40,000 nt of DNA from Paucisalibacillus globulus. GTDB taxonomy: Bacteria; Bacillota; Bacilli; Bacillales; Amphibacillaceae. A program made the position numbers and the translations under genes. The DNA lies in the NCBI RefSeq assembly GCF_900184735.1, contig NZ_LT855384.1, positions 31,547 to 71,546 of the forward strand. Reading direction: 5' to 3'. The notes under the pieces were generated by a model. It was not told the origin of the DNA and did no database searches. It saw only the letters and a program-made list of their open reading frames with translations. Below are positions 19,558 to 40,000 of this stretch, piece after piece; within the stretch, counting starts at the first letter, position 1; each line of letters opens with the position of its first letter.

Positions 19558-19562
19558 AATAA

Positions 19563-21554: not shown

Positions 21555-21558
21555 GGTA

Positions 21559-21587: not shown

Positions 21588-21612
21588 AAAAATATTGTTA
21601 GGAGAATGATAG

Positions 21613-22253: not shown

Positions 22254-22299
22254 AATATAATCTCTCTTTTCTGTATATTTATGGGTGAGGAGGGATTGT

Positions 22300-22647: not shown

Positions 22648-22674
22648 CGCATCTAACGGATGCGTTTTTATTTT
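22646..22674 (+). terminator. Rho-independent terminator
   Basis: aacgcatc-taacg-gatgcgtt perfect 8-bp hairpin followed by TTTTTATTTT. Confidence 0.7.
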
Positions 22675-22696
22675 GCTTAAAAAAGGCGGTGAAAAC

Positions 22697-24661
22697 ATGA
22701 CCACAATTAAAACCGCAATACAGATCAATGATATGATGTCCCAACAGTTCAGAGCTATGAACATGGCGATGACAACAGTTATTGATAGTTTCCAAACTTT
22801 GCAGGATGCAACAGGTAAAGCGATAAATGTTTCTGCGCTAAATGCTGCCCAGCGAGAATTACAACAAGTAGAAGCAAATTTCAATCAAATTGAAGATGAA
22901 ATTAGACAAGCCAATGAGCAACAACAAAAACTAAATAACAGCGTTCGTAATGGAAAGAATGCATCTGATGGCTTACTTTCTAGCGTGAAAACTATTGCAG
23001 CTACTTATTTATCTTTTCAAGGCGCAAAAGGCTTATTTGGTCTTTCCGACCAAGTAACCAATACAACAGCTCGTTTAAACCTAATGAATGACGAACTTCA
23101 GACAACGGCTGAATTGCAACAAATGATTATGGAGTCAGCAATACGTTCCAGGGGTCAATATTTACAAACGGCTGATATAGTGTCCAAATTGGGGCAGAGA
23201 GCAAGTGATGCTTTTGGATCTAATCGAGAAACTATTGCCTTTGCAGAAAACTTAAACAAGCTATTTGTAATTGCAGGAGCATCACAACAGGAAGTCTATT
23301 CTGCTAGTTTACAATTAACACAAGCATTGGGGTCAGGAGTGCTTCGAGGTGAAGAACTAAACGCTGTATTCGAAGCTGCGCCAAATGTTATTCAAACCAT
23401 TGCTGATTATTTAGAAGTTCCCATCGGACAAATAAGGGATATGGCATCTGAAGGGGAAATTACAGCTGACATTGTTAAAAATGCAATGCTTGGTGCCACA
23501 GACGAAATCAATGCAAAGTTCGAGGAAATGCCTTACACGTTTGGCCAAGTATGGAATCTCTTCTTAAATAATATGTATCAGATTTTTGAGCCGTTGATTC
23601 AAGTAATAGGTGCAGGAGCTCAATTTATATACGATAATTGGTCTACTTTAGAGCCTATCTTCTGGGGACTAGTGGCTGCGGTTGGCGCTTATACAATTGC
23701 TTTGGGAATACAAACGGCAGTCACGTGGTTAGCAGTTGCTGCAAACAGAGCTTTAATTGCTGCTATGCTTACCAATCCAATTGGATGGATCGCCTTGGCT
23801 ATTGGATTTTTAGTAGCTTGGATTTACAAGTGGATTGAATCAGTTGGTGGAATACAAATCGCTTGGGCAATAGCAATGAACTACATTCAAACTGGTTGGG
23901 ACGTACTTAAAATTGCTTTTATGGCTGGAGTATTTTATGTATTGAATGAACTCGACAAATTGAAGTTAGGATTCAAAATGGTGAGTACAGCTGTTCAAAA
24001 TTACATGGGTGATATGAAAGCCGGAACGCTCCTCATACTTCAAATGATGGTCAACGGAGCAATTGGAATTATTAACGATTTCATTGCAGTACTCAACAAA
24101 CTTCCAGGAGTATCTATTGATGCAATTGGGACAGTAACTTTTGGTAGTGCTGCCGTTTTAGAAAATGAAGCAATGAAGTCTGCTAGGAATGCGGAATTAG
24201 GTCAATATACTATTGATATAGCTTCAAGTATATCCGAACGTGACGCTTCACTTCAAAAAATGCAAGGAGAGGCTCTAGCGGGATGGGCTAAACGGAGTGC
24301 AGAAATAAAGGACATGCAAGCAGCTGCTCGTTTAGATGAAGGAACTTCCCCGTCACTTGGAACATTTGACTTTGTTGCTCCACAACTAAAGGATTTACAG
24401 GCTAGTGGAGCTGATACGGCTGGTAACACGAAAAAAATTGCTGATAGCGTAAATATGACACAGGAAGACATCAGTTATCTAAAAGACATCGCAGAGCGTG
24501 AAGCAATCAACCGTTATACTACTGCAGAAATCAAAGTAGATATGAAAAACGAGAATCACATTAATAACGATATGGACATTGACGGTGTTATTGACCGCTT
24601 TGGTGAACGTGTGGAAGAAGTAGCTGAGGTATTAGCAGAAGGGGGTTATGAAGATATATAA
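22697..24661 (+). CDS. Tail tape measure protein
   Basis: ATG at 22697 after SD aaggcggtg. Long alpha-helical protein with a central hydrophobic block ([15 protein letters not shown]...[16 protein letters not shown]). The track start at 22604 would read through the upstream terminator. Confidence 0.9.
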
Positions 24662-25301
24662 CTTCTTTATTGATGGACTGCAATTACCAGTAGCGCCATC
24701 ACAGATGTCAACCCAAATAAACAACAGCAATGAAACTATTACTCTCATGAATGAAGGAGAAGTAAATATATTAAAAAAGCCAGGACTAACGGATATTGAA
24801 TTTGAGGTGTTATTACCTAATGTTCGATATCCGTTTGCTGTATATCCAAATGGATTTAAACCTGCAGCACACTATTTAAATAAACTTGAGCAATTAAAGG
24901 TCAATCAAAAGAGTTTTCAATTTATCGTGAATCGAATGATGCCAAATGGAAAGCTGTTATTTGATACAAATATGACTGTTTCCTTAGAGGATTATGAAAT
25001 TGAAGAAGATGCAGAGGAAGGCTTTGATATTCGTGTAACCATAAACCTAAAGCAATTCAAATCATTTGGTACAAAAAAAGTTAAGGTTAAGCCAAATACG
25101 AAAAAGGCAACTGTGAAGAAAACTCGGAGTACTTCTGGAAAGAAAAAATATAGAACCCACAAAGTTGTACGGGGCGATACTCTATGGGCGATTGCTAAAC
25201 GGTACTTGGGAAGTGGGACAAGATATCCAGAAATCGCCAAACTCAATAAAATAAAAAACCCTAATCTTATCTATCCTGGGCAAGTTTTCAAGATTCCATA
25301 G
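24648..25301 (+). CDS. LysM-domain tail protein (XkdP-like)
   Basis: C-terminal LysM domain [21 protein letters not shown]...[10 protein letters not shown]. Confidence 0.85.
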
Positions 25302-25317
25302 GTAGAGGTGATAAAGT

Positions 25318-26280
25318 GTGGCTAAGTCAAAATTATATATCATAACCCGTGGATTTATTTATGAGTGCGCTGTGGAAGAATCAATAGTGTGGGAAACTCA
25401 CCGTAAAGGAAGCCCGGGCAAGCTTACATTTAATGTTATAAAAGACAATGTAATAAGCTTTCACGAGGGCGATGCTGTTCGATTCGAATATGATGGAAAA
25501 AAAGTATTTTATGGCTTTGTTTTTACTAAAAAGCGTAAGGATAAAAGAATTATCAGCGTGACAGCTTATGATCAACTTCGTTATTTTAAAAATAAAGATA
25601 CGTACACGTATGCTAATAAAACTGCCTCTCAACTGCTTAAAATGATTGCTCGGGACTTTAACCTTAAAACCGGTACTGTTGAAGATACAAAACATGTTAT
25701 TAGATCGCGTGTCGAGGACAATCAAGAACTATTTGCGATAATGGACTATCCTTTGTCAGAAACAATCCTGAATACTGGTAATATGTATATACTTTATGAT
25801 GATTACGGGTCGCTCAATCTTCGAAATGTATCGCGTTTAAAAACAGATATTCTAATCGATGAAGATACAGGTGAGACTTTCGAGTATACATCTTCGATTG
25901 ATGATAAGACTTATAACAAAATTAAGTTAATCCGAGAAAACAAAGAAACCGGCAAGCGAGAGATTTTTATTACGCAAGATGGTATTAACATCAACAATTG
26001 GGGTGTTCTTCAGTACACAGACAAACTGGACCAAGGTGTTAACGGGAAGGCTAAGGCAGATGCTCTATTAAAACTGTACAATAGGAAAACCCGTAAGCTT
26101 CACATGAATAAAATATTTGGGGATGTTCGTGTAAGAGGAGGATCATCTGTTGGAGTGCAAATGAATCTAGGTGATTTGAATGTTGCTAACTTTATGATGG
26201 TTGAAACTGTAAAACACACATTCAAAGAATCGGATCATCGGATGGATTTAAAGTTAATTGGAGGTGATTTCATTGCGTGA
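25318..26280 (+). CDS. Baseplate hub / late control D-like protein (XkdQ-like)
   Basis: Size and position. N-terminal WETHRKGSPGKLTFNV...ISVTAYDQLRYFKNKD pattern. Confidence 0.75.
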   Translation: MAKSKLYIITRGFIYECAVEESIVWETHRKGSPGKLTFNVIKDNVISFHEGDAVRFEYDGKKVFYGFVFTKKRKDKRIISVTAYDQLRYFKNKDTYTYANKTASQLLKMIARDFNLKTGTVEDTKHVIRSRVEDNQELFAIMDYPLSETILNTGNMYILYDDYGSLNLRNVSRLKTDILIDEDTGETFEYTSSIDDKTYNKIKLIRENKETGKREIFITQDGININNWGVLQYTDKLDQGVNGKAKADALLKLYNRKTRKLHMNKIFGDVRVRGGSSVGVQMNLGDLNVANFMMVETVKHTFKESDHRMDLKLIGGDFIA

Positions 26281-26590
26281 TATGACGGACATTCTAAATA
26301 ATATTAGAAGAATCGCAGTAAATGCAGTGAATGCCCAAAAACTCGCAGATGTTGCACATGGCCGTGTTATTCAAACAGGTCCTTTAAAGATTCAAATTGA
26401 CCAAAAGTTAATATTGAATGAAGAGCATCTTATTTTAACAAAAGCTGTTACAGATTATGTAACTGAAATGAGTATAGACGGCGGACCTAAACAAACTTAT
26501 ACAGTTTATAACGGTCTTAGACCAGGTGATCTAGTCACTATGATACGTTCTCATGGTGGCCAACAATACATCATCATCGATAAGGAGTGA
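26273..26590 (+). CDS. Baseplate spike-associated small protein (XkdR-like)
   Basis: TTG at 26273 lies 6 nt after SD ggaggtg; 26258 and 26282 are also possible starts. Assigned by position in the Xkd order. Confidence 0.6.
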   Translation: MRDMTDILNNIRRIAVNAVNAQKLADVAHGRVIQTGPLKIQIDQKLILNEEHLILTKAVTDYVTEMSIDGGPKQTYTVYNGLRPGDLVTMIRSHGGQQYIIIDKE

Positions 26591-26594
26591 TGAT

Positions 26595-27002
26595 ATGATT
26601 CCTCAACAATTAGAAAATGATGGTTTAACACTGGATTTTGAGGAAGAAATGGAACCATCCAAAACATTTAAATTAGATTTAGATTTAAATCGCTGTGTAG
26701 GCTTCGTTGATGATTTAGAAGCTGTTAGACAAGCGATTTTTTTAATGACCTCTATTGAACGATATGAGCACATCATTTATAGCTGGGATGTTGGTATAGA
26801 ACTGCAAGATTTATACGGGATGCCTACTGCTTATGTAGCATCTGAAATACCAAGGCGTTTACAAGAGTGCTTATTACAAGATGACAGAATAACAGCAGTA
26901 GACTCTTTTGAGGTTACGGCCGTTAAAAAGAAAGTCCATGTTAAATACGTTGCCCACACCATTTATGGAGATATTGAGATAGAAAGCGAGGTGGACTACT
27001 GA
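26595..27002 (+). CDS. Baseplate wedge small protein (XkdS-like)
   Basis: ATG at 26595 after SD aaggag. The track start at 26553 would overlap the upstream gene. Confidence 0.65.
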   Translation: MIPQQLENDGLTLDFEEEMEPSKTFKLDLDLNRCVGFVDDLEAVRQAIFLMTSIERYEHIIYSWDVGIELQDLYGMPTAYVASEIPRRLQECLLQDDRITAVDSFEVTAVKKKVHVKYVAHTIYGDIEIESEVDY

Positions 27003-28090
27003 TGGTGGAACCAATCGACTTAAATACAACATATGAAGATCTAATGGAGCGGAAACTTGCAGGAGTTGATGACTCACTCGATAAGCGAGAAACAGGTATT
27101 ATCTATACTGCTACTGCTGCCAATAGCGCTGAAACGGCACAAATGCTTATTACGATAAAACATAACAATGATATGGTATTCGCCGATACTGCTCCAAGAG
27201 AAAATCTAATTCGAATAGCTTCAGAAAGAGGTTTAAAACCTTACACTGCATCAAAAGCCAAGCTGAAGGGTGTATTTAATATAGATGTCCCTATTGGCTC
27301 TCGTTTTAGCCTAGATGATTTGAATTATGTTGTTACTGAACGAATTGCTATTGGAGAGTTTATCCTGGAGTGCGAAACGGAAGGTAATATAGGTAACTTA
27401 TACTTAGGTACCTTAATACCAATCGAGTATATTGATGGTTTAACCAGTGCAGAACTAACGGAGGTCCTTATTCCCGGTGAGGATGAGGAAGATACAGAGG
27501 ACTTTCGTAGGCGCTATTTTAATAGTTTTAATTCAGTTGCCTTTGGTGGTAATCGTGCAGATTATAAAGCAAAAGTTGTTGCATTAGAAGGTGTTGGCGG
27601 TGTCCGTGTGTATCGTGCTAAGTACGGAGCAGGTACTGTTGGTTTAACAATCATAAACTCGCAATACGAAAAACCTACTCAAACCCTAATCGATTCTGTT
27701 CAACAAGCAGTAGATCCACTAACTGCTCAGGGTGAGGGAGTTGGAACAGCACCTCTTGATCATATCGTGACTGTTTCAGAGGTTAATGAAACAAATATAG
27801 ATATCACATTAAATATCACCTATCAGAGCGGATGGACTTGGCCTGATATCGAAACTAATGTGTTAAGTACAATTGATAACTATTTTAAAGAGCTATCCGA
27901 ATTATGGGCAGAGGCTCAAACATATGAGGAAGATCATGCAGGGTTAATTGTAAGAATATCTCAGATTGAAACTAGACTTTTAGGTGTTCCTGGTGTCATT
28001 GATATCGCTAACACCCTACTGAATGGTGGGACTTCAAATATTGAACTAGATAAAGAAGCTATTCCGAAACGTGGTGTTGTAGTTGGCTAG
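27002..28090 (+). CDS. Baseplate J-like protein (XkdT-like)
   Basis: 362 aa in the expected position. Typical N-terminal TYEDLMERKL...IIYTATAANSAE pattern. Confidence 0.85.
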   Translation: MVEPIDLNTTYEDLMERKLAGVDDSLDKRETGIIYTATAANSAETAQMLITIKHNNDMVFADTAPRENLIRIASERGLKPYTASKAKLKGVFNIDVPIGSRFSLDDLNYVVTERIAIGEFILECETEGNIGNLYLGTLIPIEYIDGLTSAELTEVLIPGEDEEDTEDFRRRYFNSFNSVAFGGNRADYKAKVVALEGVGGVRVYRAKYGAGTVGLTIINSQYEKPTQTLIDSVQQAVDPLTAQGEGVGTAPLDHIVTVSEVNETNIDITLNITYQSGWTWPDIETNVLSTIDNYFKELSELWAEAQTYEEDHAGLIVRISQIETRLLGVPGVIDIANTLLNGGTSNIELDKEAIPKRGVVVG

Positions 28091-28631
28091 AGACGTTGAT
28101 ATATTAAGCTATTTACCTCCAGTACTTCATCAAGTAAAAGAAGTAGTTGAAATTGCTAACGTGGAGAAAAATCCGCTGGAAGCAACTTGGGAAGCTATTG
28201 AACAGAGTTTAAATAATCGATTTATCCTTACAGCTGATGAAGAAGGACTTGCAAGACAAGAAAAAATGTTGAAAATTAACGTACCGGCAACTGATACGAT
28301 TGAAACTCGTAGATTTAGACTTCTTACTCGTTATCAAGAGCAGGCTCCTTATTCCAATTCTGTGCTTAAGCAGCTACTAGATAGTTTGTTGGGGGAGAAT
28401 GGTTATGTGATGACTCGTGACATAGCTGGTAAAAAACTAAAAGTAAAAATAGAACTTACCGTTAAAGGCCAGTTTGATGCAGTAGTCATAATGCTAGAGC
28501 GTATTACACCGCAGAATATGATTTTAACCGTTGAATTACGCTATAACCAACATAGTTTATTAAGTCAGTTTACTCATGCTCAATTAGCCGCCTTTACACA
28601 TAAGCAATTACGAGAGGATGTGTTAACTTAA
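28083..28631 (+). CDS. Baseplate/tail fibre adaptor (XkdU-like)
   Basis: 182 aa after the baseplate J-like gene. YLPPVL...FILTADEEGLARQEKML pattern. Confidence 0.7.
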   Translation: MARDVDILSYLPPVLHQVKEVVEIANVEKNPLEATWEAIEQSLNNRFILTADEEGLARQEKMLKINVPATDTIETRRFRLLTRYQEQAPYSNSVLKQLLDSLLGENGYVMTRDIAGKKLKVKIELTVKGQFDAVVIMLERITPQNMILTVELRYNQHSLLSQFTHAQLAAFTHKQLREDVLT

Positions 28632-30640
28632 TGCCTAACCAGACAACTAATTACGGTTTAACGAAGCCTATACCGGATGAATTTTATGATGTTGAAGCAC
28701 AAAACGATAACATGGACAAAATTGATCTTGAGTTAAATCGTACTCAAGATGAAATATGGAATAAGGTTGTTGAAGCAGTTACCCTTCAGCGCGGGACGAA
28801 TGTTGTTAATACTGAAAGAGACACGCTGGTTTCTAGTTTGGCATTTGATGGAGATGAAGCTATTAACCTAGTTCCATTGTTTGATAGTGGACTGTGGAAG
28901 TTACATGCTAATGCAGCAGTTAGTACACCGAATAAGATTATACACAATAACACTTCAGGTGCAGATGAGTTTTCTGAAATATGGATTAAGGTAAAACCTA
29001 ATTTTACCTATACTTTTAGATTAAATCACACTGGATTAATAAAAGTTCATTACTACAATTCTAGTAGAGTTATTTTAGAAACAGTTGTGAATTCTAGTGT
29101 TCAGGAAGTAACCTTTACAACTTCTCCTGAAACTGCTGAAATCAAGATTAACCTTCATAATTTAACAATGGGTGAAGCCATCTTTGAAGACATTATGATA
29201 AACGAAGGAACAGTCGCGCAACCATTCGTAGCCAATATTCAACCAATCCGTTTTCCAACCATTCAAGTGAAAGATGAAACAGATAAAGTATTATCTCAGC
29301 TATCTATTCAAGACCACTTCTTTGAAGGTGATAAATTAGAAGTACGTGATAGCGAATTAGTTAAAATTGCCAGTAAAAAAGAAGTCATTTTAGATAGCTC
29401 ACAAACGGTCTCTTGGACAAACAATAAAAGTGGCTATAAGCACATTAAGATAAACAGCGTATTACATGGTGTTATGCTAGGTGAATCTGATGATTTTGCA
29501 AGGGTTGTAAAATATGATGGTAAAATAATCAATATTGTAGACCCTCTTAGTGACAAAGACCAACTAACAACGGATAGAAACAACGGAGACATATGGATTT
29601 CAGTTTCTAACGCTGATTCTGGTTGGGGAGACGGTTACACACCAACAGTAGAAGAAATTAAAGCGTATTTCTTAGGATATAAAATGCGCGACAGTCTAAA
29701 TGCTAACAATCAATATAACGGTACTGGAGAAAAGGGCTGGATAGCCATTTATGATTATGTAAATGGAGTTAGACCTAATATGATAACAACACTTCCAACA
29801 ACATTAGATGCAAGATTTACTCCCTACCGACTTATATACCAATTAGCAAAACCTGAAATACAACAAGTTCAATCATTCGGAGAATTGAAGTTAAATAAAG
29901 GCGTAAATCACCTTGAAGTATTAGAAGGCATGGTGGCTAGGGAAACTATAAAGGTCTACCTATCTAGTGATTTCACATATTACATTACAAATCAAAAAGG
30001 CCGAGATGAACAATTCCATTATCCTGTAAGCAAAATACTACGGATATACAAAAACGGTAATGACGATACGCATAATTGGTTGTTTAATTCATTACTAGCT
30101 TACGGAAATGAAAAAGCTTTTATTACACCTGATAAATACGACCCTAACGCGCATTACACTGTAGATTACCTTTTCATGCCTTATCTATCTAATCCAATAC
30201 AAAGTATAGTCACAACCTATCCAAATAACCTTGGTTCTGTTGTTGATGAATTAATTGCTAAAATAAAAGAACGAAGTCTAGATTTTGATAATCTTTATTT
30301 ACAGAAGGCTAATCGAAAACAAGAAGATTGGATTAAACCGACGCTACTAAATGGGTTTAGTCACATGTATGACGGTCTTAGATTTATGAAAGACGAATTT
30401 GGTTTCGTCCATATTCAGGGAATTGCTACTGGGGGTCCAACAACAGAAGGTGCAGTGATTTTTATCCTTCCAATAGGATATCGTCCAAAAAACTATGCTT
30501 ATATTTCAGGGCTGCAATCTAGTAGCGGGTGGAAACATTTAGGGATTGACATAGGAAGTGCTGGAGAGGTTCGATTACATGACGGAAGAACTAGTACAAA
30601 TTTTATTAAGATAAACGGTATATTCAGGGCGGAGGGGTAA
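28631..30640 (+). CDS. Tail fibre / receptor-binding protein
   Basis: 669 aa. N-terminus MPNQTTNYGLTKPIPDEFYD is typical of fibre N-termini. It is the last large structural gene. Confidence 0.75.
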   Translation: MPNQTTNYGLTKPIPDEFYDVEAQNDNMDKIDLELNRTQDEIWNKVVEAVTLQRGTNVVNTERDTLVSSLAFDGDEAINLVPLFDSGLWKLHANAAVSTPNKIIHNNTSGADEFSEIWIKVKPNFTYTFRLNHTGLIKVHYYNSSRVILETVVNSSVQEVTFTTSPETAEIKINLHNLTMGEAIFEDIMINEGTVAQPFVANIQPIRFPTIQVKDETDKVLSQLSIQDHFFEGDKLEVRDSELVKIASKKEVILDSSQTVSWTNNKSGYKHIKINSVLHGVMLGESDDFARVVKYDGKIINIVDPLSDKDQLTTDRNNGDIWISVSNADSGWGDGYTPTVEEIKAYFLGYKMRDSLNANNQYNGTGEKGWIAIYDYVNGVRPNMITTLPTTLDARFTPYRLIYQLAKPEIQQVQSFGELKLNKGVNHLEVLEGMVARETIKVYLSSDFTYYITNQKGRDEQFHYPVSKILRIYKNGNDDTHNWLFNSLLAYGNEKAFITPDKYDPNAHYTVDYLFMPYLSNPIQSIVTTYPNNLGSVVDELIAKIKERSLDFDNLYLQKANRKQEDWIKPTLLNGFSHMYDGLRFMKDEFGFVHIQGIATGGPTTEGAVIFILPIGYRPKNYAYISGLQSSSGWKHLGIDIGSAGEVRLHDGRTSTNFIKINGIFRAEG

Positions 30641-30644
30641 AACT

Positions 30645-30971
30645 ATGAAAATTGTAGTCTACAAAAAACGTGAAGATGAAACGTTAGATTTTACGGACGG
30701 TATTGTTGTTGATCCTAACGCAATTCCTGAAGGTTACACTGAAGTAAAAGAACAAGGAGCATACAATGAAGATGGAAAACGCCTTACACAAGTAGAACTG
30801 GAAGAAATTCGAAATGCTGAGCCACCTAAATCAGAAGTAGATCTACTCGCAGAACAACTTATTAATGAAAAGTTTAAGAACATGCAGCTGCAAAAAGATA
30901 TAGATATGTTAGGCAGCGAAATGGCTAAAACAAAATTCGATTTGATGAAAATACAGAAAGTTGGTGTATGA
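30645..30971 (+). CDS. Hypothetical tail fibre-associated protein (XkdW-like position)
   Basis: 108 aa directly after the fibre gene. Strong SD. Confidence 0.5.
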   Translation: MKIVVYKKREDETLDFTDGIVVDPNAIPEGYTEVKEQGAYNEDGKRLTQVELEEIRNAEPPKSEVDLLAEQLINEKFKNMQLQKDIDMLGSEMAKTKFDLMKIQKVGV

Positions 30972-31117
30972 AAGTGGAATTTTGGGATCTGGCTTACAAG
31001 CGTAATTGGGTTACAAAGGAAGAACTGAAATTTGCCGTTATTACTGAAGAAAATCCATACGGAGAAATTACTCCTGCAGAATATGAAGTGATTACTGGAG
31101 ATTCATTTATAGCTTAA
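30968..31117 (+). CDS. XkdX-like small protein (49 aa)
   Basis: ATGA overlap with the upstream stop. MKVEFWDLAYKRNWVTKEELKFAVITEENPYGEITPAEYEVITG matches the XkdX-family pattern as recalled. Below the ORF-track cutoff. Confidence 0.6.
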   Translation: MKVEFWDLAYKRNWVTKEELKFAVITEENPYGEITPAEYEVITGDSFIA

Positions 31118-31173
31118 TTTATTCAGCGCTAGTAATAGCGTATTTTTTTATGCCTTAATTAGGGAGGTCAAAA

Positions 31174-31434
31174 ATGACTATACAAGAACTTGCTAGCTTA
31201 ATGGCAGTGATTTCGTTTCTTGGCGGAATCGCTATTTTTTTGTTTAAAAGTATTGTTATTAAACCGTTACAAACCTCGATTGATTTACTCAACGATACTT
31301 TAAAAAGTTTTAAGATTAGGACCGACAAAGAACTTGAATTGCTTGATTCAAAAGTTAATTCTCTAGAGAAAAAAACAACCAGACATGATGAGCAAATAAA
31401 AACACTTTTTTCGAAGGGAGGTGAGCACAAATGA
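31174..31434 (+). CDS. XhlA-like membrane protein (holin-associated)
   Basis: N-terminal TM helix LMAVISFLGGIAIFLF followed by a coiled coil. Lies before the holin gene. Confidence 0.75.
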   Translation: MTIQELASLMAVISFLGGIAIFLFKSIVIKPLQTSIDLLNDTLKSFKIRTDKELELLDSKVNSLEKKTTRHDEQIKTLFSKGGEHK

Positions 31435-31712
31435 AAATCAACTGGAAAGTAAGATTCAAAAACCCAGTATTCTATACACAATTAATTCTATCAATCCTGG
31501 TACCTATTATTGGGTATATGGGAATTAGATTTGAGGATTTAACAACTTGGGTGGTATTAGGTGATGTACTTGTACAAGCCTTATCAAACCCTTACGTAGT
31601 AGCGCTTGTCCTAGTCAGTGTTTGGAATGCACTCAATGATCCAACAACTAAAGGATTAAGTGATAGTATTCAAGCACGAAATTATAAAAAACCGAGAGGA
31701 GATGTTGAGTAA
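31431..31712 (+). CDS. Holin (phi LC3 / XhlB-like)
   Basis: [15 protein letters not shown]..., two TM helices, C-terminal [10 protein letters not shown]. Confidence 0.78.
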
Positions 31713-32539
31713 TGGGAGTAACATTTATTTACCCAACAGTAAAAAGAATAACAAGTCATTTTAGTAAGAGTAGACCGCATCCGATAACTGGTGTGGTCTC
31801 TTTTCATTCTGGAACAGACTTCGCACAACCTGGACGTCAGGAAATTAAAGCAGCTGCAGCTGGAAGGGTTGTAAAGTCTTATGTAAGCACCTCATATGGT
31901 GAATGCATTATCATACGTCATAATATTAAAGGGCAAACTTGGGAAACACTCTATGCACATATGCTTAGTGGCTCTCGTAGAGTACATGTTGGTGATATTG
32001 TTAAGCAGGGAGAAGTTATTGGACTTATGGGAAGTACCGGTGATTCTACAGGCCAACATCTACACTTTGAAATTCATAGGGGTACCTGGAACAGTCAAAG
32101 AAGCAACGCGGTCAACCCTGTTGATTACTTGAACAAGGATCTGTATCCTGTATCTGCTTCCGGTAATGTATATGTCGTAAAAGCTGGGGACACACTTTCA
32201 AAAATTGCTAAGAATCACGGCACAACGGTTGATGTACTTGTTAAACTAAATAAAATTAAGGACAAAAATTTGATTTTTGTTGGCCAAAAAATTAAGTTGC
32301 CAGGTAGCAAAGGTGAAACTCTTTATCTACCAAAAACGGAGTCAAGATGGAGAGTTTATCCAACTAATAAAGCACCAGTTAAAGGTAATGAAAAAGGCTT
32401 CTTGAATCCTAAGAAGTTTGGTGGACTGCAATATCAAGTGCTTGATAAACCTCAAGCTCATGTAGTAACTATTCAGACTCAAGACTTTGGTAAGGTTAAT
32501 ATCTATGTGCATCCTTCCACAGGTGCTACAATTAAATAA
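31712..32539 (+). CDS. Endolysin: M23 peptidase + LysM + C-terminal binding domain
   Basis: FHSGTDFA ... [16 protein letters not shown] (M23 metal site). LysM domain [29 protein letters not shown]...VGQKIKLP. Confidence 0.9.
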
Positions 32540-32640
32540 ACTAAAATAAGCATAGACAACTTATTCTAGTATAGAATTCATGGGGGTCTGGTGGACCACT
32601 TAGAAGGAGTTCGGAAAAGCTCTGGATATAAAATAAGACC

Positions 32641-32678
32641 AAAAAAAATCCCTCTTGTGGAAGCAGGAGGGATTTTTA
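32641..32678. terminator. Strong bidirectional rho-independent terminator closing the lysis operon
   Basis: atccctcttg-tggaag-caggagggat 10-bp stem flanked by A8 and T5. Confidence 0.7.
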
Positions 32679-32698
32679 AAATAAGGACCTAAAAACTA

Positions 32699-32727
32699 TA
32701 TACAAAGTATTTTCTACATGCTATCAT
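32699..32727 (+). promoter_or_regulatory. Putative sigma-A promoter with an extended -10
   Basis: TATACA (-35), 17 nt spacer, TGcTATCAT (extended -10). Confidence 0.45.
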
Positions 32728-32728
32728 A

Positions 32729-32742
32729 GGAACGTACGTTCC
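32729..32742. promoter_or_regulatory. Perfect 14-bp palindrome matching the Bacillus LexA (Cheo) box core GAAC-N4-GTTC
   Basis: GGAACGTACGTTCC, starting 2 nt downstream of the putative -10. Confidence 0.55.
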
Positions 32743-32782
32743 AATTGGAAACGTTTTTACAAAAAAGCAGGAAAATAGTCAT

Positions 32783-32814
32783 CTTTTGTAGAATATGTAA
32801 TTTATCTACAAAAG
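32783..32814 (+). promoter_or_regulatory. 10-bp inverted repeat whose 3' arm runs into the SD of the downstream gene
   Basis: cttttgtaga-(12 nt)-tctacaaaag, immediately followed by ggggataaatATG. Confidence 0.5.
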
Positions 32815-32824
32815 GGGGATAAAT

Positions 32825-33748
32825 ATGGATTTAAATAATATAATTCAAAAACTGCGGGAATTTCAAGAACCAGATGGAAGGTTATCTGTTTTATTTGTAT
32901 CAAAGAATGGCACAAGATATAGTTCGTTCGAACCAAGTGTTTCTAATGATGTACAGAAGGAAGTCATTAAATTATTTATTGAAAATATAGACCATAAAAT
33001 ACAAGCTAACCTTAACTCGGTTACATTCAATCCAAGTGGGCATGAGAATGATGAATATTCAGTATGTGATACAGATTATGTTGGAAATTATTCTGAAGTT
33101 ATCAACTTGTTTGATGAAACAGTTACCGAAGAAATGGATCCGAACAAAGTTAGTTTCTTAGTATTTAAACTAAGAATAAATAATAATGGTGAAGATCCGA
33201 AGTTTATTTATTTCTTTAGAAAAAACCACAAGTTAAAAAGTATTCGCAAAGGTTTCTGGATTAGAAAAGTTGCTGATACATTTAATATACTAGAAGATAA
33301 TAAATTGATAGCAATAGACGGGGGAATCGATGCTATCTCCTTAGATAATCAACTTATATTTTTTAGTCATATTGCGGCTGAACGTATATTCAACCTAAGA
33401 GAGAAGTTTAAAGAAAACGCTCAATTAGTACTAAGAGAAGTACAAGGTGGTACGAAGATCGAAAACTTCGATCAATTTAAGGAGGATTGTTTAGGTGATG
33501 CAAGAATCATTAGAAGACTCACTAAAATACAATCTAATCCAGAAATTATAAGGTTGTTTCACGAGCATTTCGACAACGCACCTGAGGTTGTGGAATTGTT
33601 TGATTTAAATATTAAATTCAATGATGAAAAATCAAAAATTATTTATGACGACAAAGAACAATTAACTGATATAACAATGTTAATGAGAGATGCATATTAT
33701 AGAACAGTCCTGGCAAATAGAAAAGGGATAGATGATTTTAATATCTAA
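32825..33748 (+). CDS. Accessory soluble protein, 307 aa; possibly DUF4868/KwaB-like (unverified)
   Basis: Strong SD and an AT-rich gene. No TM helix or catalytic motif recognised. Size and overall pattern are reminiscent of KwaB-type proteins. Confidence 0.75.
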   Translation: MDLNNIIQKLREFQEPDGRLSVLFVSKNGTRYSSFEPSVSNDVQKEVIKLFIENIDHKIQANLNSVTFNPSGHENDEYSVCDTDYVGNYSEVINLFDETVTEEMDPNKVSFLVFKLRINNNGEDPKFIYFFRKNHKLKSIRKGFWIRKVADTFNILEDNKLIAIDGGIDAISLDNQLIFFSHIAAERIFNLREKFKENAQLVLREVQGGTKIENFDQFKEDCLGDARIIRRLTKIQSNPEIIRLFHEHFDNAPEVVELFDLNIKFNDEKSKIIYDDKEQLTDITMLMRDAYYRTVLANRKGIDDFNI

Positions 33749-33776
33749 TTTAAGGTAAAGGAGGTAAAACTAGAAA

Positions 33777-34307
33777 ATGATAACAAAAACTTACAAGGTG
33801 CTATTATTTGTCTCATCATTTTTACCTCTATATGTAATATTAATTGTGAAATTTTATGACTTTGAACAAAGCATTAAAGAGAATTTATTAGAACACTATG
33901 TAACATTTGGATTCTTTATGGTGTTAATTTTGATTTCACTATTAACATTTTTGTACTTTTGCTTCTGTGAATTGAACTCTGAAGAAACTTTCCACGGATT
34001 GGAGAATAAAAATAGTGAAATTTTAAGTTACTTTATTACCTACGTAGTACCACTTACTACCTTAGAAGAAGGAAATTTAAATTCAATTATAATAAATGCC
34101 TTATTATTTTTAGTTATTGGTATTTTCTATGTTAATAGTAATTTGTTTTATCTAAATGTTTTGTTTACTATATTCGGTTTTAATGTCTATCAAGATAGCG
34201 AAAACAAAATTATAATCTCAAGAAAGAGTGCAGATAAAATAACTAACAACACATATATTAATGTAAAAAAGGTAGGAAAGAAAATTTATATAGTTAATAA
34301 AAAGTAG
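33777..34307 (+). CDS. Accessory polytopic membrane protein, 176 aa (~4 TM helices); possible KwaA-like partner (unverified)
   Basis: SD aaaggaggt. Hydrophobic helices at about residues 7-24, 42-63, 104-119 and 123-135. Lysine-rich C-terminal tail. Confidence 0.78.
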   Translation: MITKTYKVLLFVSSFLPLYVILIVKFYDFEQSIKENLLEHYVTFGFFMVLILISLLTFLYFCFCELNSEETFHGLENKNSEILSYFITYVVPLTTLEEGNLNSIIINALLFLVIGIFYVNSNLFYLNVLFTIFGFNVYQDSENKIIISRKSADKITNNTYINVKKVGKKIYIVNKK

Positions 34308-34325
34308 CCCCATAACTATGGGGCT
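34306..34325. terminator. Hairpin between convergent genes (works best as the minus-strand terminator)
   Basis: agcccca-taacta-tggggct. A T-run follows on the minus strand only. Confidence 0.5.
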
Positions 34326-34672
34326 TACTCATTCCAAGGACGATCTTTAACTTCAAATCTTGCAGCCTTTTTCCCGTGTGAATAATCAGTCATTAACTGC
34401 TTTGTCATTTCCTTCAATTCTTCAGGTTTAAATTCCACCATTTCTTTATTAATTTCATACTTTCCCTTTTTGATACGTTTAATTTCAATATGATGCTTGG
34501 TTAATAATTCAGTTTTAATTTTAAAATAGTCCTGGTGCATTCGTTCGATTATCGAATCAATCATATCTTCGTAAAGATTCCTCAATTGAAATTCACTGAA
34601 CTTCTCTTTATCCTGTTTAAAAACTGCTATAGCCATAGGTATGGCGATGTACTTTTTGATTAGTTCTTCCAT
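34325..34672 (-). CDS. Hypothetical protein (115 aa)
   Basis: K/E-rich helical protein. Weak SD ggaagtg 6 nt before ATG. No motif recognised. Confidence 0.6.
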   Translation of the reverse strand: MEELIKKYIAIPMAIAVFKQDKEKFSEFQLRNLYEDMIDSIIERMHQDYFKIKTELLTKHHIEIKRIKKGKYEINKEMVEFKPEELKEMTKQLMTDYSHGKKAARFEVKDRPWNE

Positions 34673-34823
34673 CCGTTACACTTCCATTTTCAAAATATCG
34701 CTTTAACATAGGATCTTTTCTGTCGAGGTATTCAAACGCATCTTGTTCAGAAGGTGTGGCCCCGGGGTAAACAATTCTTCTTCCATCAAAATATGGCTGA
34801 AATTCTTCTTTTTCTTTTTCCAT
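34617..34823 (-). CDS. Hypothetical protein (68 aa) overlapping the next gene by 56 nt
   Basis: Strong SD aaggagtg before ATG at 34823. The C-terminal ~18 aa lie over the start of the downstream gene in another frame. Confidence 0.5.
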   Translation of the reverse strand: MEKEKEEFQPYFDGRRIVYPGATPSEQDAFEYLDRKDPMLKRYFENGSVTDGRTNQKVHRHTYGYSSF

Positions 34824-34962
34824 TTTAATTCACTCCTTAATTATCTTAGTATAATAATTCGATAATTTGAAGCTGTAACCCTGCATAGAAAAGGAGTTTT
34901 CAACTTATTTTGAAATTAGTGATTTTGTTGGTGTTCTATAGTTGTTTTCAGGAAAAGTTTCC

Positions 34963-35178
34963 TTATAAGAAGGTTTTTCTGTTATTATGTTCCCTCTCAA
35001 CCAAATCATCTAAACTACATCCGATTATATCTGCTATTTCTGCAGCCTTTAAAAGGGTAATTTTTCTACGCCCATGAATGTACCTGGAAATATTATTTTC
35101 ATCTTCCCCTAGAGCTTTTGCTACTTGCCTATTAGTAAAGCCGTTCTCTTTAATGGCTTCCCCGATTCTTAATTTCAT
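34963..35178 (-). CDS. XRE-family HTH transcriptional regulator
   Basis: FTNRQVAKALGEDENNISRYIHGRRKITLLKAAEIADIIGCSLDDLV. ATG at 35178 after SD aaggtga. Divergent from the FtsK-like gene. Confidence 0.85.
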   Translation of the reverse strand: MKLRIGEAIKENGFTNRQVAKALGEDENNISRYIHGRRKITLLKAAEIADIIGCSLDDLVEREHNNRKTFL

Positions 35179-35430
35179 TATGATCACCTTTTTATTATTT
35201 CGATATTTACCTGGTAAAATCCTTTATTCAAAAAAAGTTATACCATTTTGGCATAGTATAAGATGTGGCACCATACAATCTAATATGCAAACCAAAATAC
35301 AACGACTGCAGCAAAGATTGTACTTTTAGAATGGGCGCAAATCTTTAAAATTAAGCTATTCTAGCCGTTTTACCAAGTTGCAATAGCCAAGGGACTATCT
35401 TTACAAGATACCAAGAATGGAGGTGCGTGA

Positions 35431-36684
35431 ATGCTATTCGAGTTATTGTCTACAGCAAGCATGGCAGGAATTGCTGGAACAAGTTTTTATTTTAAAAACA
35501 AAAACGCTGCTAACGATCATGAAAAAATTATTAAGATTGCTGACTATGCAGGTCTTAAAACAAAGGAAGGGAGTATCCGAATTTATCGGAAAACAAAGCA
35601 TAAGAACCACACGGAATACGTTTATAAAGTTCCTCTAGGGTTATCTTTTCAACAGTTTAAGGATGTAGAACAAAAATTTATTGATGGCCTAAATAATAAA
35701 AGTCGACCGGATCTTAATCTAGCAAACTTAAAAAATATTGACTGGAAGGGAGATGTCGTAAAGCAATTAAAAGATATTATTCAGAATCGAGTAAAGCTTG
35801 ATAAAAAGATAGAAATGGAGTTTGATGGGATGCTAAAAATACGAGTCTATGAAAAAGGTTTAGAAAAGCTTTATTTATTTGATGAAAAAATGTTAGGAAA
35901 AGTAAGAGGATGGAAGGTACCAATAGGCTTCACTTATAAAGACTTTATTTTGCATGATTTTGAAGAGAGACCTCACATGATTGTAGCCGGAGCTACTGGC
36001 TTCGGAAAATCTGAATTTGTGAAACTATTAATCTCAGTTTTGGTAAGCAATAAACCAGATCAAGTACGCTTCCATTTAATCGATTTAAAAGGCGGGGCAG
36101 AATTAGGGCCTTTCCGGGACATGAAGCAGGCTATTAATTTTGGTAGAAATGTGAAGGAAGCAAAAGTAGTTCTAGAAGCCATTCAAGAAGATATGAATAA
36201 CAAGCTCGAATACCTATTTGAAAAAGGATTCAAAGATATTAAAAGAGCAGGTCAAAAAGAAAGAGATTTTATTGTGATTGATGAAGCTGCAGATCTGGAT
36301 GACGAATGTAAAGAATTAGTTACGGATATCTCGAGAAGAGGAAGGGCGGCTGGCTACAGACTCATATACACGACCCAGTACCCAACGAACGAGACGCTCC
36401 CGTCTCAAGTACGTGCCAACATTGGAGCTAGAGTATGTTTTCGACTAGAAACAGGTGCTCAGAGCAGAGCTGTATTAGATGAAAACGGAGCGGAAGATAT
36501 TCCAGAGATTGAAGGTAGAGCCATCTTTAGAAGGGTGAGAAATTATATAGTCCAAACTCCATATATGGAAGAAGAAATGATAAATAAAATTATTAAACCT
36601 CACATCATCAAGAAGGAGGGTTTAGGTGCGACCAAAGACACTAGAACGCCAAGAGCAAATCCTTTTGAGTTTAAAGAATCTTGA
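35431..36684 (+). CDS. FtsK/SpoIIIE-family DNA translocase (TraB/coupling-protein-like), with an N-terminal TM helix
   Basis: Walker A VAGATGFGKSE, Walker B FIVIDEAADL, GRAAGYRLIYTTQYP, and an N-terminal hydrophobic segment. Confidence 0.9.
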   Translation: MLFELLSTASMAGIAGTSFYFKNKNAANDHEKIIKIADYAGLKTKEGSIRIYRKTKHKNHTEYVYKVPLGLSFQQFKDVEQKFIDGLNNKSRPDLNLANLKNIDWKGDVVKQLKDIIQNRVKLDKKIEMEFDGMLKIRVYEKGLEKLYLFDEKMLGKVRGWKVPIGFTYKDFILHDFEERPHMIVAGATGFGKSEFVKLLISVLVSNKPDQVRFHLIDLKGGAELGPFRDMKQAINFGRNVKEAKVVLEAIQEDMNNKLEYLFEKGFKDIKRAGQKERDFIVIDEAADLDDECKELVTDISRRGRAAGYRLIYTTQYPTNETLPSQVRANIGARVCFRLETGAQSRAVLDENGAEDIPEIEGRAIFRRVRNYIVQTPYMEEEMINKIIKPHIIKKEGLGATKDTRTPRANPFEFKES

Positions 36685-37219
36685 TTACCTCACTGTTAAG
36701 CAAATTCAAATCTTGCATGGGTTGGGCTTTAGGAATACCTATCGAATTCTAGATCAAATGGAGCCCTATCTAAACCACTTTTATGACGGACAGAAAATCT
36801 ATTACCTTAGCAAAGAAGGTCGCGAAAAAATAAACTGCAGCACTATCCGAACTAAAATTATCACAGCAAAACATTACCTAATGCGCAATGATCTCTATAT
36901 ACAACTCAACCAACCAAAAGACTGGAAGAATGAAGTTAAGCTAATCAGTGGAGAAGGAACAAAGGCAGAAATTGTTGTTATTCCAGATGCCAGGTTCATC
37001 CGCAATGGGAAGTACCACATTATTGAAATAGACAATCAGCAAAAAATGAAAAAGAACAAAGTAAAAATTGATAAGTATAGGAGATTCATAGAAAGAAATT
37101 CATTCAAAGGTATGCCTAAGATCATATGGGTAACAACTACACCATACAGAAGAGACAGTTTACTAGAATTGTGCGAGGGGTTGGATGTTGATGTTTTCTT
37201 GGATACTGATATCAACTAA
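36626..37219 (+). CDS. Replication-relaxation family protein
   Basis: N-terminal winged-helix-like ILLSLKNLDYLTVKQIQILHG and a PDARF...IEIDN pattern. GTG start after SD ggaggg. Typical partner of FtsK-like genes. Confidence 0.75.
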   Translation: MRPKTLERQEQILLSLKNLDYLTVKQIQILHGLGFRNTYRILDQMEPYLNHFYDGQKIYYLSKEGREKINCSTIRTKIITAKHYLMRNDLYIQLNQPKDWKNEVKLISGEGTKAEIVVIPDARFIRNGKYHIIEIDNQQKMKKNKVKIDKYRRFIERNSFKGMPKIIWVTTTPYRRDSLLELCEGLDVDVFLDTDIN

Positions 37220-37328
37220 TGAGCCTAAAGAGCACTTTGATGGAGAATTTATTGTTATTGATTGGAATTACTTCTTTAGTGGGGAATATGAGAAACCGGA
37301 TGAATGCGAATAATTAGGAGGGGTTTAT

Positions 37329-37523
37329 TTGAAACTGACTAACCTGAAAATGACAGATAGCGAAAAGGAATCAATGATTAGGATAACTGCAGAGAAAATT
37401 AAAGACCTAAAGTCTTATGGATCCATGGAAGAATTTGCCCATCTCGCTAACCTGTTGTATGTATATCAAAAGCTAACAGGAAAGAATTATGAGGAGGTAG
37501 AACATGCGGACAAAAACTTATGA
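37329..37523 (+). CDS. Hypothetical protein (64 aa)
   Basis: TTG start 5 nt after SD aggagggg. Confidence 0.5.
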   Translation: MKLTNLKMTDSEKESMIRITAEKIKDLKSYGSMEEFAHLANLLYVYQKLTGKNYEEVEHADKNL

Positions 37524-37866
37524 TTTTAAGGAGTTTATGCGAGGTGAACATGAAGTAGTCAAACCACCTACTTTATCGTTAATGCCTTTAGCAGCTGCTC
37601 CGTTTATTCCTGGAACTGTTTATGCAGCTGATGAATCGGTTAAAGCCAAAATGATGGATGCTTTTAATCCACTAATAGAATTAATACAAGGTCTAGCCTA
37701 CCCAGTAGCCATGGTTGTTGTTTTAGGCGGTGCCATATTCGTTATGATAGGAAACAGTGATAAAGGCTTTAGTATGATGCAGAAGGCCGGAATGGGCTAT
37801 TTACTAGTAATGATTGCTCCAATGGTTCTAGATGTGTTAGTCGATTCAATGGACGGTGTGGTTTAA
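37504..37866 (+). CDS. Secreted/membrane protein with a signal peptide and two TM helices (T4SS pilin-like topology)
   Basis: SD gaggagg. Signal-like LSLMPLAAAPFIPGTVYA-AD, then AYPVAMVVVLGGAIFVMIG and GMGYLLVMIAPMVLDVLV. Confidence 0.65.
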   Translation: MRTKTYDFKEFMRGEHEVVKPPTLSLMPLAAAPFIPGTVYAADESVKAKMMDAFNPLIELIQGLAYPVAMVVVLGGAIFVMIGNSDKGFSMMQKAGMGYLLVMIAPMVLDVLVDSMDGVV

Positions 37867-38084
37867 TGGAAATCAAAGCACCTATGGAATATGTAGGAGA
37901 CTGGATTGGAGTAAAAATGAAAGAGGGGATGACTGATATAGCTCTAGAATATATTTCAGCCATCCCGATACTTGTCGGAGTATCAATAGGAGTATATGCA
38001 CTCTGTAGTATGATTAGTAAAACTTTTGCGAAGCTAGGAGTTGCTGGAGTATTCGGCTATGGTTTTTTAATCGTACTATTTTGA
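37866..38084 (+). CDS. Small membrane protein (72 aa, 2 TM helices)
   Basis: ATG overlaps the upstream stop. ISAIPILVGVSIGVYALCSMI and LGVAGVFGYGFLIVLF. Confidence 0.55.
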   Translation: MEIKAPMEYVGDWIGVKMKEGMTDIALEYISAIPILVGVSIGVYALCSMISKTFAKLGVAGVFGYGFLIVLF

Positions 38085-38132
38085 ATAAAAAGTAAATAAA
38101 AGCGCATCCTATTGAAAAAAGGAGGCACTCTT

Positions 38133-38426
38133 ATGCTACTGATCGGAATCGTCTTAGGAATTTACATTGGTTATAAATTAAACGATTTAATTAGAAAGTT
38201 GAATATCGGAATTGAATTTAAGATACTAGGGTTGAAAGTTACAATCGGAAAACCTAAGAAAGCTCCTGTAGTTGATATTGCAAAGAAAAAGAAAAAAGTT
38301 ACTTCAGTAAAATCAAAATGCGTTACTTGCAATGATGAGGATATGTTTATTGCTGGAACTAATAATTTAATTCCTTGTCCGAAATGTAAAAGGAATAGCG
38401 ATAAATTTAAAAAGAATCTTGTTTAA
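38133..38426 (+). CDS. Membrane-anchored zinc-ribbon protein (97 aa)
   Basis: ATG at 38133 after SD aaggagg. N-terminal TM helix LLIGIVLGIYIGY, a K-rich linker, and C-terminal CVTC...CPKC. Confidence 0.6.
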   Translation: MLLIGIVLGIYIGYKLNDLIRKLNIGIEFKILGLKVTIGKPKKAPVVDIAKKKKKVTSVKSKCVTCNDEDMFIAGTNNLIPCPKCKRNSDKFKKNLV

Positions 38427-38429
38427 TTA

Positions 38430-38460
38430 TATTTAAGTCCTCATTATTGGTTGCTTGTGG
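38430..38460. other. Approximate prophage/host junction (attR region)
   Basis: The comFA-homologous reading frame only begins here (..LLVACGAGKTEMLF). Upstream sequence is phage-like and the frame is closed by TAA at 38408-38410. Confidence 0.45.
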
Positions 38461-39409
38461 TGCTGGGAAAACAGAGATGCTATTCCCAGGAATTGAAGCT
38501 GCTCTAAAGCTTGGGAAACGAATTTGTATTGCTACTCCACGGGCGGATGTGGTCCGGGAACTTAAGCCTCGTATCCAAGCAGCGTTTCAGAAGGTCCCTG
38601 TTCAAGCATTATATGGTGGAAGTGACGATAAAACAGGCTCATCCCAGTTAATTATAGCAACGACCCACCAACTCCTACGATTCTACCAAACATTTGATAT
38701 TGTAATTATCGATGAAATAGATGCCTTTCCCTTCCATAATGATGAGTCCCTGCCTTTTGCAGTAAATAGAGCTAAAAAAGAAAAAAGCACTACCATTTAT
38801 CTAACTGCAACCCCAAGACAAAATCTTCGTCTACGAATAGCCTTGAAGAAACTCCCTCATACATTTGTACCTGTTCGCTATCATGGCAACCCATTACCTG
38901 TTCCCACACTGAAGATCTGTTACGCACTAAAGAAAAGTTTACGACAACAAAAAATTCCCAAAACCCTACTCGAATGGATTACCAATAGAAAGAACAGGCA
39001 GAGGCAGCTACTGATATTCGTACCATCCATTCATTTAGCTAAAGAAGTTCAATTAAATTTACAAAAGAGTCATCGAAACCAATTAGGTGACATTGTTTCG
39101 GTTCATTCCGAGGATGAACAGAGAGTGGAGAAGATAGAACAGTTCAGAAACAAGAAAATTGATGTCTTAGTAACTACCACCATTTTAGAGCGTGGCGTGA
39201 CATTCCCATCTGTTGACGTAGTCGTATTAGATTCGGGGCACGATGTATTTGATGAAGCAGCACTAGTTCAGATTGCTGGCCGAGCAGGAAGGAGTGCAGA
39301 TGACCCAACAGGAGAAGTGATTTTTCTTCATGATGGAAAAACCGATGCAATGGTTCAGGCGGTACATTCCATAAAAACAATGAATAAAAGGGGAGGTTTT
39401 TCATTATGA
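38447..39409 (+). pseudogene. comFA: 3' two-thirds of competence helicase gene comFA, severed at the Walker A motif by the prophage
   Basis: VACGAGKTEMLFPGIEAAL..ICIATPR..DVV.EL.PR..AAF, IIDEIDAFP, TTTILERGVT and VQIAGRAGR are collinear with B. subtilis ComFA from its AVCGAGKTEMLF motif onward. About 140 N-terminal residues are missing. Confidence 0.85.
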
Positions 39410-40000
39410 ATTGTCTTTGGTGTCACGATGAATTGTTGTTGGAGGTGAATTGGAGCAATGTAATATTCCCTACAAAAGCACAGCTAATCTGCGGAACATG
39501 TGAGAAAGAGTTGGTTCCACTATCCGGAAAACGTTGTAAGAGGTGTAGTCGCGAATCACATTTAGATGTTTGTCAGGATTGTTTGTGGTGGGAGAACTAT
39601 CATCACGGGGAGGACATAATGGAATATAATTACTCTGTTTTCCCATATACAACCCATATACAGGACATGATAGCCAAGTGGAAATATCGTGGGGATTATG
39701 AACTTGGACATGTATTTGAGCAATCGTTTAAGCAACACTTTCAGCAGAATTTTAAAAAGTTAAGAGCAGCTGTAGCAATCCCAATTCCTCTTAGTAGTGA
39801 GAGACTTCAAGAAAGATGCTTTAATCAAGCTAGCATGCTTGCCTCTTTTTTACCAATTCAAACCTTGGATATATTAACTCGTGTACACGGAGAAAAGCAG
39901 TCCAAAAAAACACGAATGGAAAGAATCTCCACTAAGAACCCTTTTATTCTTCACCAAACACTAAACAATCCAGTAATTCTTGTCGATGATATATATACAA
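39406..40000 (+). CDS. comFC: Competence protein ComFC (phosphoribosyltransferase-like), 3' end beyond the window
   Basis: ATG overlaps the comFA stop (ATGA). MNCLWCH...CGTC...CKRC...CQDC zinc-finger cysteines. Ends with the PRTase motif VILVDDIYT at the window edge. Absent from the ORF track because the frame has no stop in the window. Confidence 0.85.
   Translation, partial: MNCLWCHDELLLEVNWSNVIFPTKAQLICGTCEKELVPLSGKRCKRCSRESHLDVCQDCLWWENYHHGEDIMEYNYSVFPYTTHIQDMIAKWKYRGDYELGHVFEQSFKQHFQQNFKKLRAAVAIPIPLSSERLQERCFNQASMLASFLPIQTLDILTRVHGEKQSKKTRMERISTKNPFILHQTLNNPVILVDDIYT

Follow-up and report, generated by a model that had tools for sequence, protein, structure and literature searches.

A prophage is inserted at helicase motif I of the competence gene comFA in Paucisalibacillus globulus, and uninterrupted alleles of the gene exist in the same species. 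The window (the whole 40,000-nucleotide stretch of DNA analysed here) contains the right-hand part of this prophage, followed by the 3' part of comFA and the beginning of comFC (Table 1). At the level of sequence, the same insertion site recurs in other genomes and is linked to one recombinase clade. We consider it very probable that a temperate myovirus-type phage integrated into comFA through conservative site-specific recombination by a large serine recombinase, whose gene would lie beyond the window at the distant left end of the prophage. The phenomenon is already published for related bacteria, those of the Bacillus cereus group, and the window case adds a new genus; it opens no new kind of biology, but bears on the debated question of what mobile elements gain by disabling transformation.

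Table 1. Features of the P. globulus window at and around the interrupted comFA locus.
Feature	Position in window	Strand	Basis or remark
Right-hand 38.4 kb of myovirus-type prophage	1..38455	+	PHROGs matches, ORF map
Right-end accessory module	33777..38084	+	Pfam, PHROGs; all phage protein families
Membrane protein and HTH regulator in right-end module	HTH 34963-35187	HTH -	Pfam/PHROGs
FtsK/SpoIIIE-like ATPase	35431-36684	+	Pfam; PHROGs class 'moron'
Replic_Relax protein	36626-37219	+	Pfam/PHROGs
TrbC/VirB2-like small membrane protein	37504-37866	+	Pfam/PHROGs
Last phage ORF, 104 aa, small membrane/zinc-ribbon-like	38112..38426	+	Stop 30 bases before crossover
Phage-derived stretch open in comFA frame, KESCLIIFKSSLLVA	38411..38455	+	Foreign to native gene
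attR	38436..38480	+	Homology to uninterrupted attB begins 38456; eight foreign attL junctions break after same dinucleotide
attR phage (attP-left) arm ...TCCTCATTATTGGTTGCT	38438-38455	+	Sequence
Probable crossover dinucleotide TG	38456-38457	+	Junction comparison
attR host (attB-right) arm TGGTGCTGGGAAAACAGAGATG	38458-38479	+	Sequence
comFA 3' fragment, codons 143-459 and stop	38456..39409	+	Begins within helicase motif I, otherwise undamaged
comFC 5' part, continuing past window edge	39406..40000	+	TIGR00201 ComF family, E 7.6e-23

The interrupted comFA locus

The reading frame that carries the comFA fragment is closed upstream by a TAA at 38408-38410 and stays open from 38411, where it begins KESCLIIFKSSLLVACGAGKTEMLFPGIEAAL, to a TGA at 39407-39409; this stop overlaps the comFC start codon (39406-39408) in the sequence ATGA (39406-39409). 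Pfam recognised DEAD, ResIII and Helicase_C domains in the fragment, and an intact relative found in a database search (P0001) was a ComFA of 459 residues, of which residues 143-459 are 97% identical to the window fragment. The 142 extra N-terminal residues of P0001 include the ComFA_N domain (PF27511). The combination of motif I (AxxGxGKT), DEAD/ResIII and Helicase_C domains and, in P0001, a ComFA_N domain ahead of them identifies the gene as comFA, and several homologues in the hit list were named ComFA by their sources; a PDB sequence search with the fragment returned generic SF2 helicases only, none of them named ComFA. Codons 1-142 of comFA and the promoter are absent from the window.

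P0001 is encoded on nine short assembled contigs, six of which (L001-L006), from the same species as the window, were examined. All six contain an uninterrupted comFA in the order degS-degU-STAS-degV-comFA-comFC-x-flgM-flgN, that is, comFA followed by comFC within a degSU - degV - comF - flgM neighbourhood, an arrangement that we take to match that of B. subtilis. At the DNA level, positions 38456 to 40000 of the window match L001 with 97.7% identity, comFC being collinear between the two, and this homology begins abruptly at 38456 (TGTGGTGCTGGGAAAACAGAG). Aligned across the junction, the uninterrupted allele reads ...CTGATTTGGGCAGTA-TG-TGGTGCTGGGAAAACAGAG and the window reads ...CCTCATTATTGGTTGCT-TG-TGGTGCTGGGAAAACAGAG. 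The TG at the break represents the first bases of the Cys143 codon, inside the A-V-C-G-A-G-K-T of helicase motif I (Walker A). Because conspecific uninterrupted alleles exist, the arrangement is evidently an insertion rather than an old deletion.

A sequence-only reading of the window had placed the split exactly at the Walker A motif and had called for a survey of intact comFA genes in the species; the alleles of L001-L006 supply these genes and locate the break at the Cys143 codon within motif I. The same reading was right about the TAA within phage-type sequence, the overlap of the comFA stop with the comFC start, and the loss of about 140 N-terminal residues together with the promoter. Its proposed collinearity with ComFA down to the stop holds from Cys143 onward, but the 'LLVA' ahead of this residue belongs to the phage arm and merely resembles the native 'LIWAV'.

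The comFA 3' fragment shows no decay: it differs from the intact allele by 15 synonymous and 5 non-synonymous substitutions (pN/pS 0.10). A functional, N-terminally shortened ComFA starting at TTG 38447 or ATG 38477 was considered and rejected, as no convincing ribosome-binding site precedes TTG 38447 and motif I would be broken or absent. In annotations, a single split gene accounts for both the 142-residue and the 320-residue call ('hypothetical protein / DEAD box helicase'). Many NCBI ComFA entries (P0002, P0003, P0005 and others; 363-381 aa) start at an internal Met in their annotation and lack 80-100 residues. The DNA behind such entries still encodes the full N-terminus (for example, L007), and a short ComFA annotation alone therefore does not imply a split gene.

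The missing 5' half, the integrase and the prophage body

No integrase was detected within the window, and the lysogeny module and attL should therefore lie beyond its left edge. Three proteins bear on this missing part, and for each of them the protein database lists a single contig, 184,258 bp in length. P0121 (WP_096269365.1) is an N-terminal comFA fragment of 142 aa that ends ...KKEFLIWAV and matches the N-terminus of P0001 with 96% identity, P0127 is the window's own 320-residue comFA fragment, and P0132 is a large serine recombinase of 450 aa with Resolvase, Recombinase and Zn_ribbon_recom domains. P0121 and P0132 are both labelled P. globulus. From the equal 184,258-bp contig records and the species label, we infer that the three proteins are encoded on the same contig, and P0132 is the likely integrase of the window prophage. 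The sequence-only reading had expected the 5' part of comFA beyond attL, more than 38 kb away; a 5' fragment does exist, in P0121, and ends exactly at the break, whereas its position, like that of attL and the distance to it, is a deduction from these records. P0132 is 86% identical to the recombinase of a comFA prophage in P. globulus DSM 18846 (L008).

The prophage genes are ordered as sigma factor, HNH endonuclease, primase-helicase, helicase, large terminase, portal, major head protein, tail sheath, tape measure and endolysin, followed by the FtsK/Replic_Relax module, with nearly all long ORFs on the + strand and no tRNA in the prophage part of the window. From this gene content, the phage is apparently complete and looks fully lytic-competent. 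A phage-own RNA polymerase sigma factor (83-742; phrog_351, E 4e-48) is situated at the left window edge, with an HNH endonuclease (1568-2512) and an AAA+ ATPase-like ORF (3555-4484) downstream. The right end (33777-38426) has a plasmid- or conjugation-like flavour and includes further small membrane proteins, and the G+C content goes down to about 30% at 33-35 kb. The last phage ORF had neither a family match nor a relative in IMG/VR, and a megablast of the right-hand 8.5 kb of the prophage (window 30000-38455) against a collection of 50,697 phage records gave no DNA match.

Recurrence of the insertion in other genomes

When the N-terminal 142 residues were used to search species-representative genomes, 39 loci were obtained, and comFA was uninterrupted in 38 of them. 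The exception was L008 of P. globulus DSM 18846, which has residues 1-143 only and stops at ...FLIWAV, the same codon as the window break. Next to the fragment, on the opposite strand, come a recombinase of 446 residues (Resolvase, Recombinase and Zn_ribbon_recom domains) and a LexA-like repressor, and after these phage early genes. The L008 prophage has no DNA similarity to that of the window, and its host flank is 74% identical to L001, compared with 97.7% for the window; L008 is therefore a separate event in a different lineage, and the notion of one prophage seen twice was discarded on these grounds.

Five further recombinase homologues were sampled, from B. spizizenii (L090/L091), Virgibacillus salexigens (L092), Brevibacillus laterosporus (L093), Paenibacillus sp. 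(L103) and Anaerobacillus isosaccharinicus (L104), and a sixth locus (L046), with a recombinase 63% identical to that of L008, was reached through its N-terminal comFA fragment. The recombinase is directly beside a ComFA_N fragment at all six loci, and the degV-degU-degS flank is present at five, being missing at the Paenibacillus locus. With L008 and the record of the B. thuringiensis phage BMBtp15, eight other prophages are thus known in which a related recombinase (59-86% identical where measured) adjoins the 5' part of a comFA gene that is interrupted at the codon of the window break. That break, after codon 142 plus TG, coincides with that of BMBtp15, a site of the B. cereus-group type, and with the seven other attL junctions.

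The attachment site

In each of the eight attL junctions, the break follows the Val codon and two further bases, and a shared phage arm of the form AATAGCC-N4-5-ATGAATAC continues from there. The two junction bases are TG in seven of the eight and AC in the Paenibacillus host, whose comFA encodes Thr (ACN) in place of Cys at the break position. Identity between attR and the left part of attB ends at the TG. This junction pattern fits the 2-base crossover core of a serine recombinase, and the dinucleotide appears to follow the host codon; the TG core is the probable one for the window prophage, as judged from junctions across different phages rather than from attP, attL and attR of one phage. 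Thr (ACN) or Ala in place of the Cys before GAGKT was observed at L103 4330-5688 (Paenibacillus sp. IITD108), L019, L028, L032 and L035. The AC of the single prophage seen in a host of this kind suggests that the central dinucleotides of phage and host co-vary and could set the host range.

The left phage arm is available from two junctions, that of the window and the attR of a viral contig (L099; ...GGTATTCAAGACTAGCTACT-TG-CGGGGCTGG), and in both it loosely mirrors the consensus of the right arm. On the bacterial side, the site consists of the codons for W-A-V-C-G-A-G-K-T-E-M; across 39 genomes, from Paucisalibacillus to Halobacillus, these hardly vary outside the wobble positions, with a right arm of GGNGCNGGNAARACNGARATG and a left arm of TGGGCNGTN. 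These are serine integrases for which a well-defined, conserved natural attB can be described. A 16-mer of the phage arm had 41 matches in IMG/VR, all of them unrelated chance matches on inspection, and no free attP was found among them.

Predicted consequences for competence

Under the mechanism that we favour, exchange would occur at the 2-base core, the TG of the Cys143 codon, and would join a quasi-palindromic phage attP to a bacterial attB consisting of motif I coding DNA. The lysogen would then hold codons 1-142 and the comF promoter at attL, one prophage length upstream, and codons 143-459 with comFC in the window. In competent Gram-positive cells, ComFA acts as the motor of DNA import, and DNA uptake is abolished in B. 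subtilis when the nucleotide-binding site of ComFA is mutated (reference 21 of PMC4774983). Because motif I is broken, ComFA of the lysogen is predicted to be non-functional: a protein with an intact ATP-binding motif would no longer be made, and ComFA-driven DNA uptake would presumably be lost. The insertion is also predicted to be reversible, since the same recombinase with a directionality factor could excise the prophage and restore the gene exactly, with a predicted restored junction of GGGCAGTA-TG-TGGTGCTGGG and, after excision, a predicted attB junction of GGGCAGTATGTGGTGCTGGG. The analysis identified no recombination directionality factor.

The insertion probably also cuts comFC off from its promoter, and a polar effect on this gene may be envisaged. 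No terminator-like site was found between the last phage ORF and the comFA fragment (38426-38456), and, as almost all phage genes are co-oriented with comFC, read-through from the prophage might occur. Transcription of comFC could thus be maintained by the prophage, rather than being silenced by polarity.

Comparison with known systems

Prophages in the 5' half of comFA were reported in Bacillus cereus VD214 and B. thuringiensis serovar tolworthi, with integrases about 44% identical to the Listeria comK-phage integrase, and were interpreted by the authors as mobile elements that disable transformation in an 'intragenomic conflict' (Croucher et al. 2016, PLoS Biol, PMC4774983). A 2025 review also lists comFA among prophage targets (PMC12378983). 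The Bacillus phage vB_BtS_BMBtp15 (KX190835.1) interrupts the same gene at the same codon as the window prophage: its record opens with 126 bases of comFA, and its start, ...TTTATTTGGGCTGTA-TG-AATAGCC, encodes ...FFIWAV and then a stop. The record (L047 1-130), described as 'complete genome, circular', was evidently cut from a lysogen with imprecise ends. The BMBtp15 integrase is 59% identical to that of P. globulus DSM 18846, and the two share the layout of the lysogeny module, integrase and then LexA-like repressor. The phage body of the window, which encodes a tail sheath, appears unrelated to that of BMBtp15, whose name presumably marks it as a siphovirus. Unlike the B. cereus-group cases, the host here is Paucisalibacillus, a halotolerant member of the Bacillaceae.

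Our survey adds to these cases that the target is the motif I coding sequence, that the dinucleotide appears to follow the host codon (TG for Cys, AC for Thr), and that the clade stands beside a broken comFA in Bacillus, Virgibacillus, Brevibacillus, Paenibacillus and Anaerobacillus. In the literature searched, we did not find the motif-I position, the host-following dinucleotide or a multi-genus spread with unrelated phage bodies stated. No paper on the BMBtp15 integration site was found under the phage name, and searches for comFA plus serine recombinase, or for Bacillus phage regulatory switch plus serine recombinase, returned none.

The analogy with the comK, spsM and sigK elements, drawn from the window sequence at the outset, is apt at the level of the enzyme, as the integrase belongs to the family of A118/comK-phage large serine recombinases. 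The comFA-associated recombinase is 46% identical to the A118 integrase, and the Listeria monocytogenes phages A118 and phi10403S likewise combine a large serine recombinase, a very short core and a split competence gene that excision would restore; the target in Listeria is the regulator comK, whereas the window prophage interrupts comFA, the motor of uptake. In Listeria, experiments have demonstrated that excision within macrophages is regulated and non-lytic (PMC7397523). The SPbeta/spsM and skin/sigK elements of B. subtilis are serine-recombinase elements that split a gene and rejoin it by precise excision (PMC5499854). This excision is tied to the sporulating mother cell, with a host-timed directionality factor (SprB for SPbeta) and sporulation genes as targets, and no control element of this type was identified at the window locus.

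Other late competence genes are also hit by prophages, with comFA interrupted in Streptococcus equi and S. suis and comYC/comGC in pneumococcus (PMC4774983, PMC12378983), and the comGA prophage SpST71A of Staphylococcus pseudintermedius similarly inactivates a late competence gene. The streptococcal comFA integrases have 34% identity to the Bacillus one, and their site is in the 3' half of comFA (PMC4774983). The streptococcal and staphylococcal cases involve integrases and sites different from those of the window prophage.

Selective explanations for the choice of comFA

The insertion mechanism leaves room for several selective explanations. One possible explanation, which we hold tentatively, is that the knockout of comFA shields the prophage from deletion by recombination with DNA from non-lysogens; the mechanism of insertion would be the same as that set out above, and only the selective reason would differ. 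This strategy was proposed for exactly such insertions (PMC4774983) and repeated in a later review (PMC12378983). It would be consistent with the coexistence of non-lysogenic alleles in the same species and with the association of one recombinase clade with comFA in at least seven genera, on phage bodies that are unrelated where comparable: the window prophage has no DNA similarity to that of L008 or to the phage collection, and it has a tail sheath. Since one clade is carried by unrelated phage bodies, it may be argued that the comFA target is kept by selection and not by chance. However, the same pattern would be expected if the recombinase merely needs a very conserved and dispensable target.

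The latter idea, that motif-I coding DNA is targeted for its conservation, as one of the most conserved stretches of 40-50 bp across Bacillales and hence a route to a wide host range, is a little less probable still and on balance unlikely. Being dispensable, comFA would be an acceptable place for insertion, and any effect on competence would arise as a by-product. Large serine recombinase phages often integrate inside genes, as in Bxb1/groEL1, A118/comK and SPbeta/spsM, and the near-invariance of the attB arms described above would agree with this reading. Many other helicase and ATPase genes have an equally conserved Walker A motif, yet the clade was found beside comFA in eight of the eight cases examined. 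In addition, the unrelated streptococcal integrases target comFA at a second site (PMC4774983), which suggests that the gene itself matters.

Both of these explanations are likelier than a regulatory switch (active lysogeny), in which host cues would trigger precise excision without lysis, comFA and comFC would be expressed only then, and the prophage would afterwards re-integrate or be lost, as for phi10403S in comK, SPbeta in spsM and skin in sigK. We regard such a switch as improbable. It draws on the analogy of the enzyme, which shares its large serine recombinase family with the A118/phi10403S comK integrase (SprA of SPbeta is likewise a serine integrase; PMC5499854), and on the exact restoration of the reading frame that recombination at a 2-base core would allow. 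The undecayed 3' fragment would also be expected, but recent insertion explains this absence of decay equally well. The prophage looks able to complete a lytic cycle, and the LexA-like, SOS-type repressor of its close relative in L008 points to ordinary induction. Moreover, no host-controlled directionality factor or competence-regulated promoter was found; a promoter scan performed no better than shuffled sequences, no control element of a competence or sporulation type could be discerned close to the junction, and the literature searches found no published regulated excision from comFA. The broader proposition that one recombinase clade, carried by unrelated phages in at least seven Bacillales genera and dedicated to the motif-I codons of comFA, forms a reversible uptake switch in some hosts seems just as doubtful.

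Finally, an old deletion or rearrangement that removed the 5' part of comFA and left phage-like DNA merely abutting the remnant would agree with the position of the 5' part outside the window, but it is extremely improbable, given that P0121, recorded on a 184,258-bp contig and matching the intact allele at 96% identity, terminates at the very position of the break, and that eight further prophages of this integrase clade have their junctions at the identical base. Site-specific integration remains our preferred reading, and its predicted effects could be followed in a tractable host: the B. spizizenii of L090/L091 (Logan SRR18100343, GCA_026794875.1) belongs to the naturally transformable B. 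subtilis group, and would provide a convenient experimental system for the loss or switching of competence.
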